Shown: positions 2,953-44,951, counted from the stretch's first letter. The stretch is 44,951 nt of DNA from Candidatus Lloydbacteria bacterium RIFCSPHIGHO2_02_FULL_50_18 (GCA_001821395.1 MHLM01000013.1:1-44951); one strand, 5' to 3'. Made by a program: numbers and translations. Notes: generated by a model not told the origin, from the letters alone.

Positions 2953-3465
2953 TCATGGATTCCAGTATTTTCCACTATGGAGAATTGACGGTCCGCCGAC
3001 GATGCCATCATACTCGATGATGCTGACACCCGCCTCACGGAGCATCATGTGCGCAATGACGATGTCTGCGCTCCATACCGATTCCGGCGGCGTGCGATCA
3101 TGCGCCTGCTTGTGGATGATAAGCGTTCTGATCCCCTCATCGATGATCTCCTGTGCGCACTCGGTGCATGCAGCCCACGGGCAGACCATCGTTAGTCCGT
3201 CGAAGTGGGGAACATTGTGTGCGCGTCGCGCGGTTCCAAGGGTCGAGCGTTCAGCATGGTGTACTAATTTGTATTTTAGTGCGCGGTCGTTCCACCGTTC
3301 GTCCGAGCTGATCACACCATGCGGGAAACGATTGTGATCGGCACCGAGAATGACTACGTTGTCGCCGATACGGGAGACGACAAGCGCACCATTCTGTGTT
3401 GATGGGTCGGGGCTTTTTGTCGCTTCCACGTATGCCTGCCGAAGCAGCTCTTTCCAAATATCCAT
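2953..3465 (-). CDS. dCMP deaminase / cytidine-deoxycytidylate deaminase family (ComEB-like)
   Basis: HAERSTL ... PCPWAACTECAQEI zinc-binding deaminase signature (H-A-E and P-C-x-x-C). GGAGG sits 6 nt upstream of ATG 3465. Confidence 0.8.
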   Translation of the reverse strand: MDIWKELLRQAYVEATKSPDPSTQNGALVVSRIGDNVVILGADHNRFPHGVISSDERWNDRALKYKLVHHAERSTLGTARRAHNVPHFDGLTMVCPWAACTECAQEIIDEGIRTLIIHKQAHDRTPPESVWSADIVIAHMMLREAGVSIIEYDGIVGGPSILHSGKYWNP

Positions 3466-3601
3466 GCAAACCTCCATTATATAGAGCAAACTTTGTCCAG
3501 TGTAAGGTCGCGCATTGCTTTTGTAGACTACACAAAATTGCAAAATATGCCGTAATGATGTATATTCCTCCTATCGACGCTCGCTTTGCGGGCGTTTAAT
3601 T

Positions 3602-5419
<1,818 letters not shown>

Positions 5420-5442
5420 TTCCCAATTGCGTGATTACTCTG

Positions 5443-5463
5443 CCCCGCAATAGCGGGGTTTTG
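5443..5463 (+). terminator. rho-independent terminator after typA
   Basis: CCCCGCAATAGCGGGG followed by TTTTG. Confidence 0.75.
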
Positions 5464-5769
5464 TATTTCACGTTGATTGACAATCAAGTCAAGAGATGAT
5501 ACAGTGTAATCCTCATAAAACTCCTCTCTCGAATGGTCGAACATTGAGAGACTTCCACAACAAATGGTAAGTCACAGAGGTATGTTGTGGGAAGTCTAGG
5601 ACATGCGCAAATGACGAATTTCATCGTTGCGAGGCCCCAGTGATTCGGTCGACATATGTGAATATGTCTTCCTCGTCACTCTCCCCGCGTCTCGATTTTC
5701 ATTCATTTTCGTCAGTCCGGTTATTTAATTACTGTTGCACTACGGTGTAACGGTCATAATCAAATTTAT

Positions 5770-32084: not shown

Positions 32085-32189
32085 TTGGATTCCGTTTACG
32101 AAAAAGCCAACCCAATGTCCGGCTCTGCGGACTTGGCTTACTGCGTCAGTACCCCCTCCCGATTTGTCATCAAGTTCTTCCAAACACTG

Positions 32190-32276
32190 CGGAGGAGGAG
32201 AGATTCGAACTCTCGAACGAGTTGCCCCGTTGCCGCCTTTCCAAGGCGGTGCACTAGACCGCTATGCGACTCCTCC
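32190..32276 (-). tRNA. tRNA-Ser (anticodon GGA), long variable arm, CCA not encoded
   Basis: Minus strand reads GGAGGAG-TC-GCA-TAGCGGTCTAG-TGC-A-CCGCC-TTGGAAA-GGCGG-(variable arm CAACGGGGCAACTCGTTC)-GAGAG-TTCGAAT-CTCTC-CTCCTCC-G. It has a 7-bp acceptor stem, a canonical T-loop, and anticodon GGA in a 7-nt loop. Confidence 0.9.
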
Positions 32277-32704
32277 GCACTATTTATAAGAATTTTTCAA
32301 GAGCACTATCTCCTTACATTTGGCAGCAAGGATGAAATGAAGCTAGCTTCAATTTCATCCGAGCGAACTAAATGCATGCTTCATTCAGGAGCTGTACGCC
32401 TTTTGGATATTTTCTTCGTCTCAAAGCAAACTCGAAACTATCTCAAAAGGTCTTGCGTTTCGGTTCCCACTTCAGAAAGCGGGTTCCCATCACCGAAGCT
32501 CACACCATGCGAACCCTCCAGTTACGAGACGCACTATAGCAATTTTATCGTCGCGACGCAAAAGGGCACTGTGCTCATTCGAAACAACCCAATCGTTGAA
32601 CAACTCTCCGATATTGTGTGGGGACGGCGTTCGCTTGCGCGAAGTCCTTTCCGATGGCAGGATGAACACAGAAGAGGCAGTACATTGCATTGAAAGGGAA
32701 TCGT

Positions 32705-33206: not shown

Positions 33207-33974
33207 ATGCGCTCAAATATGCAAAACTCCGCGATCACGTTGCTCAGCCTCAATATGCATCAAGACTATCATCTTGAAACCGTTACTGCGCTCATCACCG
33301 AGCGGGCGACCGACGTCATCTGTCTTCAGGAGACACAAAAGATATTTGTCGAGGACATTGCACGACGACTTGGATATGACTTTTTATTTTCATTGAGAAC
33401 GTATAATGCCTCTCGAGATGATGGTGCCGAACTCAGGGAAGAGGGCGTTGCGCTCATTTGGCACCCTTCTCTTCGGTTGCGAGACAGTAGTGTTATTGCA
33501 TACCGGGAAAAAGACCAGCCTGTCGTGAAACGATTGACGGATGATCCGAATGACGTACGGAGAACGATGCTTGTCGCAACGCTTCTGCGTGGGGTGCAAG
33601 TATTCCGCATCGGCACCACACATTTTACCTGGACACCCGACGGAAGCGCCTCGGAAGAGCAATGCGGCGATATGCATCGCATGCTCAGTGCGCTCGAAGT
33701 ATTTCATGACGAGTACGGCATCGTATTTTGCGGTGATTTCAACGCACCACGCGGCGGAGAGATATTTCAAATGATGAGTGATGTGTATACCGACAATCTT
33801 CCCAGATCGATCGTAACAACACTTGATCAGGCGCTTCATCGTGCAGCTCCTATTTTTCACGCCGTCGATAGCATCTTTTGCACTAAGGAATACGCTGTTT
33901 CCGATGTCGCCGTTGTCGATGGAGTGAGTGACCACATGGCACTTTTTGCAAAGGTGTCAAAGAGTGTGTGCTAG
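33207..33974 (+). CDS. endonuclease/exonuclease/phosphatase (EEP) family protein
   Basis: LSLNMH ... DVICLQE ... GDFNA ... SDHMAL catalytic motifs of the EEP/DNase I-like fold. The start is at 33207 or 33219. Confidence 0.7.
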   Translation: MRSNMQNSAITLLSLNMHQDYHLETVTALITERATDVICLQETQKIFVEDIARRLGYDFLFSLRTYNASRDDGAELREEGVALIWHPSLRLRDSSVIAYREKDQPVVKRLTDDPNDVRRTMLVATLLRGVQVFRIGTTHFTWTPDGSASEEQCGDMHRMLSALEVFHDEYGIVFCGDFNAPRGGEIFQMMSDVYTDNLPRSIVTTLDQALHRAAPIFHAVDSIFCTKEYAVSDVAVVDGVSDHMALFAKVSKSVC

Positions 33975-34360
33975 TGCATGTTTTGTCTTACCCAGTTCAA
34001 GTGATGGTGTCGCAAAGAAGCTTTGTGGAACATGGCGGTTTGAGAGAGCTATTGTCAAAATGAAATTATCGGCGCACAGGTTTTACTATCCACAATTATA
34101 CTCTTGCGGCTTCGTCAGTAATTGCTAGAATCATAAATAGGGAGAGTCGTGTGATTCTCCACAAGAAGTCCTGTGGGACCTTAATTAGACCGAGACGTAA
34201 CAGTCCCGGTTTTGGTTTTTTGGAGTTTTTATACGAATTGAGCATTGTATTTTATCTTGGACTGAAGCATCTTTAGGGACCTTGATCATCTGCAGAATTT
34301 TTCCTCAAAAGCGAGGGCAGTGCGCACCCGCAGGAAAGAATTGCGTCTTTCTTTAAGCGA

Positions 34361-34486
34361 GGGTTTTGATCTTTTGGGCCCCCGCAGACGTATTGCTTGG
34401 TCCGATCGGCTTTGTGATCGGAATTCGTCGAGGGCACACGCGACCGCCGCTGGAAGCGGTCGCGTGTGCCCAAAAGATCAAAACCC
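34361..34486. repeat. nested inverted-repeat element: perfect 19-bp IR (GGGTTTTGATCTTTTGGGC ... GCCCAAAAGATCAAAACCC) enclosing a perfect 16-bp-stem hairpin (34432-34471)
   Basis: Both repeats were verified base by base. A small 7-bp hairpin at 34401-34422 lies between them. Possibly MITE-like or a structured RNA. Confidence 0.85.
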
Positions 34487-34565
34487 GAGCGGTTACTATC
34501 CACACGTTTTCCCCCCTTGCGGGAGTCTAAAACACCACAGATTGGTACAATAGGCAAAGCTCTTT

Positions 34566-36500
34566 ATGGCGGATCACACCAAGAAAATATCGATACATAT
34601 CGGCAATTCGAAACCATCTCCTGCCCCTCTGGGGCATAGTAGCGAGCATTTGCGCGCGCATAGTGAGAAAGCAGTGGTACCATCCGCACACACTAAGTCC
34701 AAGTCTTTGATCGTCACTCATGCGCAAAGCGTATTTCCCGAATCATCAAAGTCGGTAAAAACACTGACTCCCGTCAAACTCGCTATCCCCAAAAAACCAG
34801 TCACGATGGAAGGGATTTCCATGAGCACTATCGCTATCGCCTATTTTTGTATGGAGCTCGGCATCGAGCATTCAATTCCCACTTATGCGGGTGGATTGGG
34901 GATCCTTGCCGGTGATACGCTTCGTTCTGCGGCAGATCTCAATGTGGACATGATCGGCATCTCTCTCTTGTATCGAAAGGGATATTTTCGCCAACGTTTC
35001 GATGACTCAGGTTGGCAGATCGAAGAAGATGAGCAGTGGGATCCGACACAAAAGTTGATCCTCCTTCCCGGCCTCGCTGAGGTCACCATCGAAGGAAGAA
35101 TGGTGTTCATTCGCGCATGGCTCTATAAAATGAGCGGAGTGAATGGTCACGTCAATCCGATCATATTTCTCGATACGGATGTCGACGGGAATAGTGAGGA
35201 TGACCGACAGATCACCGCAAAGCTCTACGCGGGTGATCGCAGAATGAGGCTGATGCAGGAAGCGGTTTTGGGAATCGGCGGTTTTCGCATGCTACAGACA
35301 TTGGGAGCGACCAATATCGAAAAATTCCATATGAATGAAGGACACTCCGCACTGCTGACACTTGAGCTCTATCGGAAATATCATGAATACGATGGTCCGG
35401 TCGAAGAGGTAAAGAGCCGAGCCGTTTTTACGACGCATACACCAATTGCGGCCGGTCACGATGTGTTCACTCGAGACCTTGCGCATGCGGTGCTCGGGAA
35501 AGAGTGTATACCGGAAGAGGTTCAGCATTTGGCATTTGTTGACGGGATGTTGCACATGACACATCTTGGGTTTTCTTTTTCCGGCTATCACAATGGTGTT
35601 GCAAAAAAACATAGTGAAGTTACCCGTGAACTTTTTCCGGGCTATCATATTGAATCGATCACGAACGGTGTCCATGCCGGGGAGTGGGTCAGCGCACCGC
35701 TTGCGGTGCTGTTCGATCGCTATATAGCAGGATGGCGCTTTGATGCACATAATCTTCGATATGCCCTCGTGATCCCGGCCGACGAATTACGGTCTGCGCA
35801 TCAAGCGATGAAGGTGCGTTTGTGTGAGTATGTCCACATTTCGGACCCTGCGACCATCTTTGATCCGCAGGTCTTTACGATCGGTTTTGCGCGAAGGGCA
35901 ACTTCGTACAAGCGCGGTAATATGCTTTTTCATGACGTTGAGCGCCTCAAGCGTATCGCCGAAAAAAGCAACGGTATTCAGATCGTCTATGCGGGAAAGG
36001 CGCACCCCGATGATCGCGATGGTAAGCTGATGATGCAAGAGGTCATTCGGCAGATGCGTACTTTTGCCGGATCAAAAGTGAAATGCATCTATCTTCCCAA
36101 CTACGACATGGAGGTGGCTAAGCTCTTGGTCTCTAGTGTGGACCTGTGGCTCAATACTCCCGTGCGTCCCATGGAAGCGTCGGGAACATCAGGAATGAAG
36201 GCGGCAATGAACGGTGTGCCCCATTTTTCTACGCTCGACGGCTGGTGGCTTGAGGGGCATATCGAGAATGTTACCGGCTGGTCTATTGGTCCTCATCCTG
36301 AAGAGGGGAGGAATCGAGATGTCGATGAAGAGGATGCGGACGATCTGTACAAGAAACTTGAGTATGTGATCATACCGCGATTTGAAGATGATCCGCATGC
36401 ATGGGTGAAGATGATGCGCAGTGCTATTGCAATCAACGGTTCGTTCTTTAACACGCAGAGGATGATGGAGCAGTATGTCCTCGGCGCCTACTTCAAGTAG
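34566..36500 (+). CDS. glgP: alpha-glucan (glycogen/maltodextrin) phosphorylase, GT35 short type
   Basis: YFCMELG...YAGGLGILAGD, EGHSALLTLE, TTHTPIAAGHD and EASGTSGMKAAMNGVPHFSTLDGWWLEG (the PLP-site Lys lies in TSGMKA). The first ~80 residues are Lys/Ser-rich and may not all be translated; alternative starts are at 34806 and 34821. Confidence 0.85.
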   Translation: MADHTKKISIHIGNSKPSPAPLGHSSEHLRAHSEKAVVPSAHTKSKSLIVTHAQSVFPESSKSVKTLTPVKLAIPKKPVTMEGISMSTIAIAYFCMELGIEHSIPTYAGGLGILAGDTLRSAADLNVDMIGISLLYRKGYFRQRFDDSGWQIEEDEQWDPTQKLILLPGLAEVTIEGRMVFIRAWLYKMSGVNGHVNPIIFLDTDVDGNSEDDRQITAKLYAGDRRMRLMQEAVLGIGGFRMLQTLGATNIEKFHMNEGHSALLTLELYRKYHEYDGPVEEVKSRAVFTTHTPIAAGHDVFTRDLAHAVLGKECIPEEVQHLAFVDGMLHMTHLGFSFSGYHNGVAKKHSEVTRELFPGYHIESITNGVHAGEWVSAPLAVLFDRYIAGWRFDAHNLRYALVIPADELRSAHQAMKVRLCEYVHISDPATIFDPQVFTIGFARRATSYKRGNMLFHDVERLKRIAEKSNGIQIVYAGKAHPDDRDGKLMMQEVIRQMRTFAGSKVKCIYLPNYDMEVAKLLVSSVDLWLNTPVRPMEASGTSGMKAAMNGVPHFSTLDGWWLEGHIENVTGWSIGPHPEEGRNRDVDEEDADDLYKKLEYVIIPRFEDDPHAWVKMMRSAIAINGSFFNTQRMMEQYVLGAYFK

Positions 36501-40536: not shown

Positions 40537-40745
40537 GGAAAAATTTTAACATAGTGTCGAGCGAAAGAACACGTGGTCGCATGTGGTCAAGTGCGGTATC
40601 GAAAAATATAGTATTGATATTTGCGATCGTTGCGTATTTGAATAGTGAGCATTCGAAGTGTAAGTGCAACAAAATACTCACGCTTTTCATAAGTTATCCC
40701 CATTAGGAAAAGTCTCTCAAGTGACGATACAATAGGCACATAAAC

Positions 40746-40838
40746 ACCTTGGAGTTCTTGCCTTCGAGGTGTTCATTGTTAACTGAAGCCCTGTTCGAAA
40801 ATTAATCTTCATCTCATTATTTTTCGGACAGGGTTTTT
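40746..40838 (+). promoter_or_regulatory. two tandem hairpins in the nrdJ leader; the second (CCCTGTTCGAAAA...TTTTTCGGACAGGG) is followed by TTTTTG
   Basis: ACACCTTGGAG-TTCTTG-CCTTCGAGGTGT (11-bp stem with 2 G·U pairs), then a 13-bp stem plus T-run ending ~170 nt before the nrdJ ATG. Confidence 0.4.
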
Positions 40839-41007
40839 GAGTCAGTCGGTTTGCCATGAGTTTCTCAAATGGATGAAATTCGAGACGCGGGGAAAGAGAC
40901 GAGGAAGACATATTCTTATATGGTGACCGAGTCGCAGGGGCTCCGCAACGAAGAAGTTCGCCATTTGAGAAATTCATATTATTAGGTTTATTATTCCCAC
41001 ATACATT

Positions 41008-43308
41008 ATGTCGAACGCTCCCACACGTAAGGCAATCAAGAAGAAGCCCGCTCCAAAGGGCAGTTTATTAAAAGAAGTGCGTAAGCGTGACGGTACGGTC
41101 GTACCATTTGATCGCGAACGGATCAAGAGCGCGATAGTTCGCGCTATGCTTGTCTGCGAAGAAGGCGGAGAGGAGGCCGCCGAGCAGGTGACAACCGCCG
41201 TAGTTTTGGCGCTTGAAAAGTCCATGAAGGGACGAAAAGGGTATCTGCCGACCGTTGAAGATGTTCAGGATACCGTTGAAACAGAGCTTATCTTTATGGA
41301 TTTTGCCAAGACGGCAAAAGGATATATTCTCTACCGCGAAGAGCATAAGAAGATCCGCGATATCGCGGGGATTATCCCCGAATCAGTTAAGGATCTTGCA
41401 CGAGAGAGCAAAAAATATTTTAAAAATTCACTTGCGGAATTTGTATACTATCGTTCGTATTCACGCTGGATTGAGCATGAGCAGCGACGTGAGACGTGGG
41501 TGGAGACGGTAGACCGATACATGTCGTTCATGCGCGAGAATCTCGACAAAAAACTGACGGAAAAAGAGTATGACGAAGTGCGCGAAGGCATCGTGCGCCA
41601 AGAGATCATGCCCTCGATGCGACTCATGTGGGGTGCGGGATCTGCAGCGCGAAAGACCAATGTCACCGGTTACAATTGCTCATTCATTGCACCCTCGAAA
41701 TTGCAGGACTTTGGCGAAGTGATGTATCTCTCGATGTGCGGCACGGGTGTGGGATTTTCTGTTGAGAGTCTCACGGTGCAGCAGTTGCCGCAGATCAAAA
41801 AGCAGACGGGAAAGATGCTGAAGACGCACGTCGTCGGTGACTCGAAGGAGGGTTGGGCGGATGCGTTCGTCTATGCCCTCAAGACATGGTTCGACGGGAA
41901 TGATCTGAAGTTCGACTACTCGCAGCTCCGTCCCGCAGGCGCGCGGCTTATGACGATGGGAGGCAAAAGCTCTGGTCCCGAGCCATTGCGCAATCTCATC
42001 GAATTTTCCCGGGAGAAGATACTGCGACGACAGGGAAGACGTCTCTCAAATCTCGATGTGCACGACATCATCTGTAAGATCGGAGAGGTGGTCGTTTCGG
42101 GAGGAGTGCGCCGCAGTGCGCTGATATCGCTTTCTGATCTCGACGATTATGACATGCGCAATGCAAAGGACGGACAATTCTATCTCACCGAACCGCAGCG
42201 CATGATGGCCAACAATTCGGCGGTGTATACACAGAAGCCTTCGACCGCAGAGTTTCTCGAAGAGTGGATCGCGCTCATGAAGTCCGGCTCTGGCGAGCGC
42301 GGTATCTTCAATCGCGGGTCCCTTCCGCTCCAGATGCCGGAACGCCGCAAAAAGGTGTTCATGAAGGATATCGACACCTGCGGAACCAATCCCTGCGGTG
42401 AGATCATCTTGAAGTCCAAGCAATTTTGTAATCTCACAGAGATCGTTATTCGCGCCGATGATACGCGAGCGAGCCTTATGAGAAAGATGCGTCTCGCGAC
42501 GATCCTCGGAACGTATCAATCGACGCTGACCAATTTCAAGTATCTCTCAAAGGAGTGGAAGAAGAATTGTGAGGATGAACGCCTGCTTGGAGTATCCATC
42601 ACCGGTCAGTGGGACAATGCGGAACTTGCGCACGATGCGAAGCTGCTCCGTGATCTCCGTGATGAAGCGATTGCCGTCAATAAAGTGTATGCAAAGAAAT
42701 TCGGGATCAATGCATCGACCTCGATCACCGCGGTCAAGCCTTCGGGCACCGTATCACAGCTTGTGGACGCATCAAGCGGCATGCATCCTCGTCATGCACC
42801 GTTCTACATCCGCCGCGTCCGTATTTCCGCGACCGACGCGCTGTTCAAGATGCTCCGCGATCAGGGGATACCGTACAATCCTGAGGTGGGACAGAGCGCG
42901 GAAAGTGCGGTCACCTATGTCGTTGATTTCCCCGTGAAAGCGCCAAAAGGTTCGGTCTACAAGGATGACATCACGGCGCTCGAACAGCTTGCGCACTGGA
43001 AGCTCATCAAAGAGAACTACACCGAGCACAATCCGTCCGTCACCGTTTCGATCGGTGAGAACGAATGGCTTGCCGTCGCAAATTGGATCTATGACAATTG
43101 GGACTTGGTGGGCGGACTTTCTTTCCTTCCGCGAACCGATTACGTGTACCAGCTCGCGCCGTATGAGGCGATCAGTGAAGAGCGGTATATTGAGCTGTCG
43201 AAGCGCTGGGAGGGGATTGATTTCTCGAAGATTGTTTCTTACGAGAAGATTGATGAGACGCAGGGATCAAAGGAACTTGCCTGCGTCAGCGGCGTATGTG
43301 AGATTTAA
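41008..43308 (+). CDS. nrdJ: adenosylcobalamin-dependent (class II) ribonucleotide reductase with N-terminal ATP-cone
   Basis: ATP-cone (VRKRDGTVVPFDRERIKSAIVRA). The catalytic motif NPCGEI, the C-terminal Cys pair (CVSGVCEI) and the absence of an adjacent beta-subunit gene favour class II. Confidence 0.8.
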   Translation: MSNAPTRKAIKKKPAPKGSLLKEVRKRDGTVVPFDRERIKSAIVRAMLVCEEGGEEAAEQVTTAVVLALEKSMKGRKGYLPTVEDVQDTVETELIFMDFAKTAKGYILYREEHKKIRDIAGIIPESVKDLARESKKYFKNSLAEFVYYRSYSRWIEHEQRRETWVETVDRYMSFMRENLDKKLTEKEYDEVREGIVRQEIMPSMRLMWGAGSAARKTNVTGYNCSFIAPSKLQDFGEVMYLSMCGTGVGFSVESLTVQQLPQIKKQTGKMLKTHVVGDSKEGWADAFVYALKTWFDGNDLKFDYSQLRPAGARLMTMGGKSSGPEPLRNLIEFSREKILRRQGRRLSNLDVHDIICKIGEVVVSGGVRRSALISLSDLDDYDMRNAKDGQFYLTEPQRMMANNSAVYTQKPSTAEFLEEWIALMKSGSGERGIFNRGSLPLQMPERRKKVFMKDIDTCGTNPCGEIILKSKQFCNLTEIVIRADDTRASLMRKMRLATILGTYQSTLTNFKYLSKEWKKNCEDERLLGVSITGQWDNAELAHDAKLLRDLRDEAIAVNKVYAKKFGINASTSITAVKPSGTVSQLVDASSGMHPRHAPFYIRRVRISATDALFKMLRDQGIPYNPEVGQSAESAVTYVVDFPVKAPKGSVYKDDITALEQLAHWKLIKENYTEHNPSVTVSIGENEWLAVANWIYDNWDLVGGLSFLPRTDYVYQLAPYEAISEERYIELSKRWEGIDFSKIVSYEKIDETQGSKELACVSGVCEI

Positions 43309-44355: not shown

Positions 44356-44529
44356 AACGGAAACCTCTATCCAAAAAACGGGGATAATTCCAAACAAACC
44401 TCAAATCACTAAAGTATTATTTAGCTGCTATCGCTGATAAATAACACTTTTGAAAACGGGGATAATCTATAAAAAACTGTCGGGAGTACTTTTTTGTACA
44501 TAGGTCGAACGCGAAGCATTGCTGGAAAA

Positions 44530-44558
44530 TAAAAAACCCGCATGTGCGGGTTTTGTGA
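44530..44558. terminator. bidirectional terminator (A6-CCCGCATGTGCGGG-T4)
   Basis: Perfect 6-bp stem flanked by A-run and T-run. It sits immediately after the stop of the minus-strand ORF at 44570. Confidence 0.75.
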
Positions 44559-44569
44559 AGCGTATGTGC

Positions 44570-44821
44570 TTAGGTTTTTTGGGGAATGATTTTGAATGCG
44601 TCATTTTCCCCGACATACTCTCCCGTTCTCAGAAGGATCACGTGTTGGAATCCATAGAACATAAAGGTCTTATGGCCGACCGTCTCAAAGCACACCATGG
44701 GATCGGTACGACCGCCTCCAGCCGAATTTTCCACTTTGGCAATAGTGTGCCACCTGCCTTTTATCCGTATTTTCCCCCCAGTGCATTTGTCGGCAATATT
44801 CCTCATTTCGAAGATTCTCAT
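44570..44821 (-). CDS. small hypothetical protein (83 aa)
   Basis: GGGAG sits 6 nt upstream of the ATG on the minus strand. A terminator follows the stop. A plus-strand ORF at 44519-44881 overlaps it and is less supported. Confidence 0.4.
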   Translation of the reverse strand: MRIFEMRNIADKCTGGKIRIKGRWHTIAKVENSAGGGRTDPMVCFETVGHKTFMFYGFQHVILLRTGEYVGENDAFKIIPQKT

Positions 44822-44951
44822 TTCTCGCTCCCATTTCTGTTTTATTCTGTTGCTGATATTACTACGAGGTACTTTCTTTGAAAACGGGGATACTTAAATT
44901 CTAACCTGAATTGCAACAAGGAATTATTGGCGCGCTGTCAATAAAACAACA

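Follow-up and report, generated by a model that had tools for sequence, protein, structure and literature searches.

The ERIC/IRU and REP/BIME sequences of Enterobacteria are non-coding, about 35-130 nt long and complementary over long stretches at their termini; they are located in intergenic regions that are transcribed and at gene 3' ends. Their presence varies between relatives, they are found near IS elements and are thought to form RNA hairpins affecting mRNA stability, and they are defined by a conserved sequence, which is present in tens to hundreds of copies per genome. The element described here, which precedes an alpha-glucan phosphorylase gene (glgP), differs from them in that its stems are not conserved, three complete copies occur in three genomes, and it has the form of a three-way junction with conserved loops. 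It resembles MITEs in being small and devoid of coding capacity, in having a terminal inverted repeat and in its patchy distribution, but it has no target-site duplication, its termini are its most variable part, and no second copy was found in the 45 kb of DNA analysed. With orphan Rfam-type motifs it shares covarying helices, conserved unpaired nucleotides and a narrow phylogenetic range; it differs from them in the unusual length and near-perfect pairing of its closing stem and in that it can be lost. Like the integron attC sites, it conserves structure without sequence, is of similar length and has the forked variable top seen in long attC sites; it differs from them in having neither R-box cores, extrahelical bases, an integrase nor a cassette array, and in occurring singly.

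Bacteria of the CPR/Patescibacteria have tiny genomes and are not culturable alone, and to our knowledge almost no regulatory RNAs have been characterized in them. The DNA analysed in this work (44,951 nucleotides, hereafter the window) is one contig from a groundwater bacterium that has not been cultured; among its named relatives a Candidatus Lloydbacteria genome (Parcubacteria, CPR; locus L007) is the closest, with a glgP identity of 75%. Two candidate RNA genes without a counterpart in Rfam lie in the 590-bp spacer in front of glgP. Our preferred reading, to which we assign a probability of roughly 0.55, is that the inverted repeats of this spacer represent one copy of a small undescribed family of three-way-junction elements of ~130-155 nt in Lloydbacteria-like CPR bacteria, and that selection acts on the fold of the plus strand, in which the helices P1, P2 and P3 remain paired as their sequences change.

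The locus and its relatives

The locus was gathered from 11 related organisms, using the glgP and Exo_endo_phos proteins as queries; a search of the genome collection with glgP returned the L007 contig only. The 4 kb around the element are 100% identical in three further public assemblies and 99.95% identical in another one. An earlier interpretation made from the DNA sequence alone (the sequence-only reading) had placed the spacer between an EEP-family gene and glgP, and the domain matches of the two flanking genes agree with this (Table 1); the genes neighbouring the element carry Exo_endo_phos, Phosphorylase and methyltransferase domains. The spacer had also been called non-coding. No ORF in 33975-34565 has a Pfam match and none is conserved in the relatives, but the block is not empty, it contains a conserved small-RNA unit.

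About 100 nt (33975-34078) separate the stop codon of the Exo_endo_phos gene from the box 1 region (see below) only in the window, L040 and L041; in L007, L042 and L014 this stretch is missing and the stop codon directly adjoins box 1. The 3' half of the stretch (AGCTTTGTGGAACA..TTGAGAG.GCTATTGTCAAAATGAAATTA) is conserved among the three loci in which the stretch is present, and a sigma-70-like match lies within it.

Table 1. Features of the glgP upstream spacer and its borders (window coordinates)
Feature	Position	Strand	Remarks
Exo_endo_phos protein gene	ends 33974		5' neighbour of the block; domain match
Direct repeat TTACTATCCACA	34083-34094 and 34493-34504		exact copies; CTTGCGG after each
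Putative small-RNA promoter	34086..34131	+	direct-repeat copy 1
Box 1, CTATCCACA	34086-34094	+
-35-like TTGCGG	34104-34109	+
Extended -10, TGCTAGAAT	34123-34131	+
Candidate small RNA, ~85 nt	34137..34223	+	conserved; no Rfam match
Small-RNA 5' hairpin	34141-34160	+	covarying
Small-RNA hairpin AAGUCC-UGUG-GGACCUU	34165-34181	+	strongly conserved; consensus AAG(Y)CC-UGUG-GG(R)..CUU
Small-RNA terminator hairpin	34188-34212	+	U-tract ends near 34222
Putative promoter remnant atcTGCAGAATtttt	34288..34302	+	of extended -10 promoter TGATAGAAT; one base fewer, no gene in window
Partial 5' element duplicate (AAGCGAGGG..CCCGCAG)	34309-34333	+	direct repeat; doubled GCGAGGG
Terminator-like hairpin and T-rich run	34329-34354	+	after the partial duplicate
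P0	34357-58 / 34489-90	+
Tandem G.A pairs	34359-60 / 34487-88	+
19-nt perfect inverted repeat	34361-34379 / 34468-34486		88 nt between arms
P1, closing stem, 19 bp	34361-79 / 34468-86	+
P2a	34381-83 / 34432-34	+
P2b	34387-90 / 34426-29	+
Internal loop GCUUGGU	34395-34401	+	conserved
P2c	34401-08 / 34415-22	+
7-bp hairpin	34401-34407 / 34416-34422		8 bp counting one G.U pair
16-bp stem, 8-nt loop	34432-34447 / 34456-34471
P3	34436-47 / 34456-67	+	extendable to 34432-47 / 34456-71
P3 loop CGCUGGAA	34448-55	+
Putative glgP promoter region	34496..34565	+	direct-repeat copy 2; short leader to ATG 34566
Box 2, CTATCCACA	34496-34504	+
TTGCGG	34517-34522	+
Extended -10 of glgP, TGGTACAAT	34543-34551	+
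glgP, 644-aa alpha-glucan phosphorylase	ATG 34566		3' neighbour of the block; Pfam domain Phosphorylase (PF00343)

The inverted repeats form a three-way junction

All repeats of the sequence-only reading were located again in the sequence at the same positions (Table 1). When the 45-kb window was simulated 30 times by a first-order Markov model, perfect inverted repeats with up to 150 nt between their arms reached a maximum length of 10-15 nt, as compared with the 19 and 16 nt observed here; the inverted repeats are not explained by chance. The 12-mer direct repeat is weaker evidence by itself (2 of 100 shuffles gave at least two matches at up to one mismatch), thus its reality rests on its conservation in relatives.

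The nested repeats fold as a three-way junction of ~136 nt (34357-34490), in which the 19-bp closing stem carries two arms: the P2 arm, consisting of three short helices and an asymmetric internal loop, and the P3 arm, a hairpin of 12-16 bp. The folding energy of the 151-nt region 34350-34500 is -80.2 kcal/mol (z = -8.2), a value reached by none of 200 shuffled sequences. Because the 3' arm of the 16-bp hairpin and that of the 19-nt repeat share 4 nt, the P1 and P3-base pairings compete at the junction. Stems of 19-21 bp with perfect Watson-Crick pairing are unusual for functional RNAs, and they could also be kept at the DNA level by template switching.

The sequence-only reading had allowed for an Rfam family as the explanation of the structure; the covariance-model scan returned none. 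With Rfam 15 (4227 families) the element had no match, the best hit in 33800-34700 being no better than E = 1.5, six related loci gave no match at E <=1, and at the gathering threshold a tRNA-Ser was the sole match in the whole window. P1 is followed by GAGCGGUUACUAUCC, without the U-tract directly after the hairpin that characterizes intrinsic terminators, in contrast to the neighbouring small RNA of the same genome, which has a canonical U-tract terminator. There is no adjoining reverse transcriptase as would be expected for a retron msr-msd, the downstream gene being glgP in the window and in L007, and a convergent glgP in L016. The junction strands of 0-1 nt leave no room for the core (CUGANGA / GAAA / UH) of a hammerhead or similar small self-cleaving ribozyme, and no Rfam ribozyme matched. 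No promoter was found for the element; it is preceded by a terminator-like hairpin in all three contexts. Inspection by eye for pseudoknots between the conserved loops, or for pairing of a loop with the glgP start region, gave nothing consistent across the copies. A blastn search of phage and plasmid collections with the element gave no match, and scans of viral contigs with two gapped core patterns gave chance matches, each scoring at most 17 bits with the refined covariance model (R2).

Copies in related loci and covariation

A covariance model built only from the window sequence and its predicted fold (R1) found a copy in L007 (3780-3933; 67 bits, E 3e-14) and another one in L016 (4843-4974, minus strand, just 3' of the glgP stop codon; 72 bits, E 2e-15). 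The L007 copy lies at the same position as the window copy and shares with it the base (AAGCGAGGG...CCCGAGCGG) and the topology, folding at -93.7 kcal/mol (z = -8.7). Its P1 is a perfect stem of 21 bp, the sequence of which is unlike that of the window, and the P2 and P3 sequences differ too. The L016 copy (-63.7 kcal/mol, z = -3.8) has the same topology with a different P1 of roughly 19 bp, which contains bulges, and a core nearly letter-identical to that of the window (CCUCCGCAG-N7-GCUUGGUCCGAU..., P3 loop CGCUGGAA). The alignment of the window and L016 is confined to this 92-nt core (73% identity), the flanks share nothing, and in L016 the element is absent upstream of glgP and present downstream of it. 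L042 and L006, which come from one sample, contain the left and right halves of another copy, whose P1 arms form a 20-bp helix with two G.U pairs and a single bulge, and a further variant is represented by its 5' half on the L041 contig. In the close relative L040 the element has decayed to a weak 16.8-kcal hairpin at the site, and in L010, L014, L016, L017 and L019 the DNA from the terminator of the small RNA to the promoter of glgP is only short filler, with no element. The 45-kb window contained no second copy, and a search of 133 kb of related loci with the refined model gave no additional ones; in 715 kb of unrelated viral DNA this model scored 17 bits at best. When a metagenome collection was scanned for the 19-mer arm, all 17 matches were single arms in unrelated coding DNA; the scan did not return the source locus itself.

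In the alignment of the three complete copies, which was fitted to the structure of the model (alignment A5), standard pairs account for 96.4% of the pair cells, and in 31 of 48 pairs both sides have changed and pairing is retained. None of 500 shuffles reached these values, and when the partner was slid by 1-3 columns only 32-47% of the cells were paired, with at most seven pairs changed on both sides. RNAalifold independently found the same structure in the three-copy alignment, with 53 pairs, 34 of them compensatory. Compensatory changes of the kind expected of a structured non-coding RNA are thus present, in three sequences and in an alignment fitted to the model; for so few sequences the covariation is unusually strong. 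Invariant positions are in the junction and the loops (CCRCAG, GCUUGGU, CGAGG and CGCWGGA).

The perfection of the stems had been taken as an argument against an evolved RNA structure, but it is not a trait of the family, as shown by the bulges of the L016 stem and by the two G.U pairs and the bulge of L042/L006. Conservation of the whole block in relatives, which would have pointed to a cis-regulatory RNA rather than to an insertion, was not observed either. The segment between the direct repeats does vary between relatives, as had been anticipated for an insertion; the boxes and the small RNA, however, stay in place where the element is absent.

Several features of the element depend on the strand. 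Five G.U pairs and zero A.C mismatches are counted on the modelled strand, which corresponds to the plus strand of the window. The tandem G.A at the base of P1 is kept in the copies upstream of glgP, and in each of the three copies the fold of the complement is less stable than that of the modelled strand (by 1.5, 8.1 and 4.9 kcal/mol). This asymmetry between G.U and A.C, the tandem G.A and the lower energy together favour a single-stranded molecule of the modelled polarity, most simply RNA, and on the basis of these models RNA is most likely the molecule that folds.

Seven contigs end inside the element (L004, L005, L006, L008, L009, L041 and L042, from six samples and at least three species; window position 34462-34465). 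The arms of the element are shorter than the k-mers of the assemblers, the contigs break nonetheless. Coverage loss induced by the hairpin, strain heterogeneity or inversion are possible reasons. Such breaks in the metagenome assemblies of several samples would account for fragmented bins.

A conserved small RNA and DnaA-box-like promoter elements

The second candidate RNA gene of the spacer, which the sequence-only reading had not mentioned, is a conserved small RNA of ~85 nt (Table 1). A covariance model of it (R3) found exactly one site upstream of glgP, with 73-99 bits, in all ten Lloydbacteria-like loci covering the region, and none in two distant glgP loci. RNAalifold predicts 14 consensus pairs, four with compensatory changes. 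The gene located 5' of the small RNA varies (Exo_endo_phos, ABC transporter, orphan ORF, IS fragment), the linkage to glgP is constant. The possibility that the conserved segment is a small ORF was considered: K-[SP]-C-G-[TD]-L-I is in frame in three sequences, but the frame lacks a start codon in L017 and L019, and the covarying 5' hairpin also contradicts a coding function.

DnaA boxes have the consensus 9-mer TTATCCACA and serve as transcriptional operators at the E. coli dnaA and nrdAB promoters, DnaA being a regulator of nrdAB (PMC8203912). The direct repeats of the spacer contain a box, (C/T)TATCCAC(A/G), or in its wider form (C/T)TATCC(A/C)C(A/G), which matches this consensus in 8 of 9 positions. 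Box 1 is located 30-31 nt upstream of TAGAAT/TAGACT/TAAACT in 10 of 10 related loci, and box 2 lies 30-31 or 40-41 nt upstream of the glgP TACAAT (conserved TGATACAAT) in all relatives, two spacings that differ by about one helical turn. The second TTGCGG is too distant from the -10 element to be a -35 element. In the window there are 13 box matches at up to one mismatch, three of which fall in the 590-bp block (CTATCCACA twice and TTCTCCACA once). We infer from the sequence that the box/-10 regions upstream of the small RNA and of glgP function as promoters, and that the box-1 promoter drives the small RNA.

The direct repeats had been interpreted as the signature of an insertion with duplication of its target, or alternatively as a duplicated promoter segment. 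Both copies are present in five relatives (L010, L014, L016, L017 and L019) that have no element between them, and in every relative they bracket the small-RNA gene. The boxes therefore predate the element and cannot be a target duplication; the second copy does belong to a promoter region. The direct repeats read as two copies of a conserved DnaA-box-like operator, at the promoters of the small RNA and of glgP, unrelated to the element. The boxes are predicted to be operators of one regulator, possibly DnaA, although the motif could belong to another regulator. A further parallel to the DnaA operators is that the same box (TTATCCCCA, at 40694) occurs 25 nt upstream of TACAAT in front of the ribonucleotide-reductase gene (41008-43308), a classical DnaA target, in the window as well as in L007, L006 and L010. 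A difference is that there is one box per promoter here, at -45 to -55, and we know of no report that glgP or a small RNA is a DnaA target. A replication origin was also considered as the context of the boxes; they are all in the same orientation and number only three, and it is not an origin because the GC skew, positive throughout the window, never switches sign.

Some other features of these promoter regions deserve mention. In the window and in L007 there are 14 nt between the glgP -10 and the ATG, without a Shine-Dalgarno sequence, thus the glgP mRNA would be nearly leaderless; the element-free relatives have a glgP leader of ~40 nt with a covarying hairpin. GCTCTT(C/T)AT is found just 5' of the glgP start codon in the window and in all relatives. 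The ribonucleotide-reductase leader (40694-41007) contains a terminator-like hairpin at ~40789-40838 and a 17-nt inverted repeat (40856-72 / 40961-77); it folds at -50 kcal/mol (z = -4.2) and has no match among the Rfam riboswitches. In an AT-rich stretch of 525 bp at the end of the window (44371-44895) there are three copies of GAAAACGGGGATAAT (ATTATCCCCGTTTTC on the minus strand), whose TTATCCCCG core is DnaA-box-like, and which could be an operator cluster or part of an origin.

The slot between the small RNA and the element

In relatives the slot between the small-RNA terminator and the element has its own promoter, TGATAGAAT, and different cargo: L007 carries the orphan ORF138 (138 aa, 3343-3759) and L042 a Metallophos gene (4435-5217), both after tctgatagaatttttgt. 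What appears to be left of this promoter in the window (Table 1) was recognized in an alignment made by eye and with a 9-nt blast seed. ORF138 was considered as a partner gene of the element and rejected: it is an orphan with no Pfam match and no homologue among 5.8 billion proteins, and the slot gene of L042 is a different one. The reading frame of the L042 metallophosphoesterase begins at ATA, with no canonical start codon nearby. Partial copies similar to that found 5' of the window element are present upstream of the element in L041 and L042.

Discussion

In our best reading, the inverted repeats form a lineage-restricted structured RNA-like element that can be lost. The rival explanations treat the structure as a property of the DNA. 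The sequence-only reading favoured MITE or IS terminal repeats, and in the corresponding model the element is non-autonomous (a MITE, a foldback element or a solo IS end) and is mobilised in trans by a transposase that recognizes P1 as a terminal inverted repeat. The family occupies two unrelated positions and both orientations relative to glgP, its presence is patchy among close relatives, there are partial copies nearby and contigs break at the element, all of which would suit such a model. In addition, the L016 copy is located 467 nt downstream of a DDE_Tnp_4 transposase fragment, with an IS200-like fragment at the same locus; this transposase fragment and the partial duplicates beside the window copy are a hint of DNA-level mobility. 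The termini of transposase-recognized elements are, however, their conserved part, whereas here the terminal repeats differ completely between the copies (the P1 arms of the window, L007, L016, L041 and L042/L006 are all different) and it is the interior loops that are conserved. The stem is not flanked by a target-site duplication, the adjacent sequences being AAGCGA and GAGCGG, and the 30-bp direct repeats, which lie 250 nt and 3 nt from the stem, are also present in relatives without the element. Nor was a second copy found in the 45-kb window or in 133 kb of related loci, the homology between the window and L016 stops at the junction core, unlike that of a shared IS end, and no transposase remnant was seen in the window or in the other loci. 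Thus, of the hallmarks of a MITE or IS the terminal inverted repeats are there, the conserved termini and the flanking duplication are not, and the most variable termini, the missing target-site duplication and the lack of a transposase remnant in the window speak against a MITE. We regard a mobile element of this kind as quite unlikely. The earlier verdict of an unannotated mobile or regulatory structure can be retained only in part: an unannotated structured element does lie upstream of glgP and a regulatory role has some support, the transposon interpretation is not supported.

A functionless cluster of DNA palindromes, which arose by local duplication and inversion and is kept perfect by intrastrand template switching (quasipalindrome correction), would explain why the window and L007 stems are fully Watson-Crick, why there are partial tandem duplicates, and why the element could be lost in L040 and several relatives with no obvious replacement. 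Template switching is known to turn imperfect inverted repeats into perfect ones (PMC7202029). It accounts for the paired arms, but not for the unpaired junction and loop sequences, which are the best conserved, nor for the persistence of the three-arm topology in three genomes in which the intergenic flanks can no longer be aligned, and G.U pairs on one strand only are not expected from it; we consider this explanation unlikely. The conservation of structure over sequence, the size of ~130-150 nt and the forked top are also reminiscent of a single-stranded-DNA site used by a recombinase, transposase or primase (integron attC, IS200/IS605 end, single-strand origin), and the strand bias of the fold and the IS remnants near the L016 copy point in the same direction. 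Against this, no R''/R' cores (RYYYAAC / GTTRRRY) were seen by eye at the base of the stem, the neighbouring genes of the window include no integrase, cassette array, HUH transposase or replication gene, and the neighbourhood is one of housekeeping genes, which makes such a site very unlikely. Template-switched palindrome, mobile foldback and single-strand recombination site jointly receive about a third of our credence. Hardly credible, finally, is an invertible DNA switch, in which the 19-21-bp P1 arms would be recombination sites around an invertible 88-nt core next to the glgP promoter. An inverted repeat does enclose a short segment immediately upstream of the promoter, and in seven cases the assembly ends at, or close to, the inner edge of an arm, which a mixture of orientations could produce. 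All six spanning assemblies, as assembled contigs, show however one orientation, the core has no promoter-like sequence and itself consists of covarying hairpins, the arm sequences are not conserved, unlike a recombinase site, and there is no invertase among the genes examined around the locus.

The transposase fragments of the L016 glgP locus (GCA_043720495.1) are an IS200-like Y1_Tnp fragment upstream of glgP and a DDE_Tnp_4 fragment downstream of it (1861-2130 and 5441-5701, respectively). Between the DDE_Tnp_4 fragment and the element copy there are repeated C(U/C)CCGCAGG hairpins.

How a structured RNA element might work can be discussed only tentatively. The element of the window clade comes after a terminator-like hairpin and lies 3-5 nt upstream of the glgP promoter box, so placed that it would form the 3' end of the variable cargo transcription unit. 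It may act as a 3'-end or stand-alone RNA module, whose base-paired termini would yield a stable small RNA, possibly processed by RNase III. At the same time it could be a barrier insulating the glgP promoter from upstream transcription, and the conserved loops might provide the contact surface for a partner. We consider this combination of a stable RNA, promoter insulation and loop contacts possible, though it is less probable than the existence of the family itself.

A bolder proposal, which we find rather doubtful as a whole, would be that the element encodes a stable small RNA of a new class in CPR bacteria, a three-way junction of ~140 nt with paired ends and three invariant loop motifs, that it relocates within genomes and has a protein or RNA partner, and that together with the small RNA and the DnaA-box-like operators it would tie glgP and the ribonucleotide reductase to the replication initiator. 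If this were true, glycogen breakdown (glgP) and dNTP supply would be coupled to the replication initiator in these reduced genomes. The DnaA-box-like operator appears to be common to the small RNA, glgP and the ribonucleotide reductase, and if confirmed, these results would provide the first testable regulon and two new RNA families for CPR/Patescibacteria.

Two observations concern other parts of the window. The longest perfect inverted repeat of the window is a 40-bp perfect palindrome with zero spacer at 1167-1206 (TATTATCTTAACCTATGCTA / TAGCATAGGTTAAGATAATA). The tRNA-Ser(GGA) is encoded by the minus strand (32189-32276), inside a plus-strand gene of 192 aa of the public annotation (32115-32693); this ORF, which lacks a Pfam match, is probably at least partly spurious. 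A 26-nt inverted repeat of 81% identity (32172-97 / 32270-95) flanks the tRNA gene.
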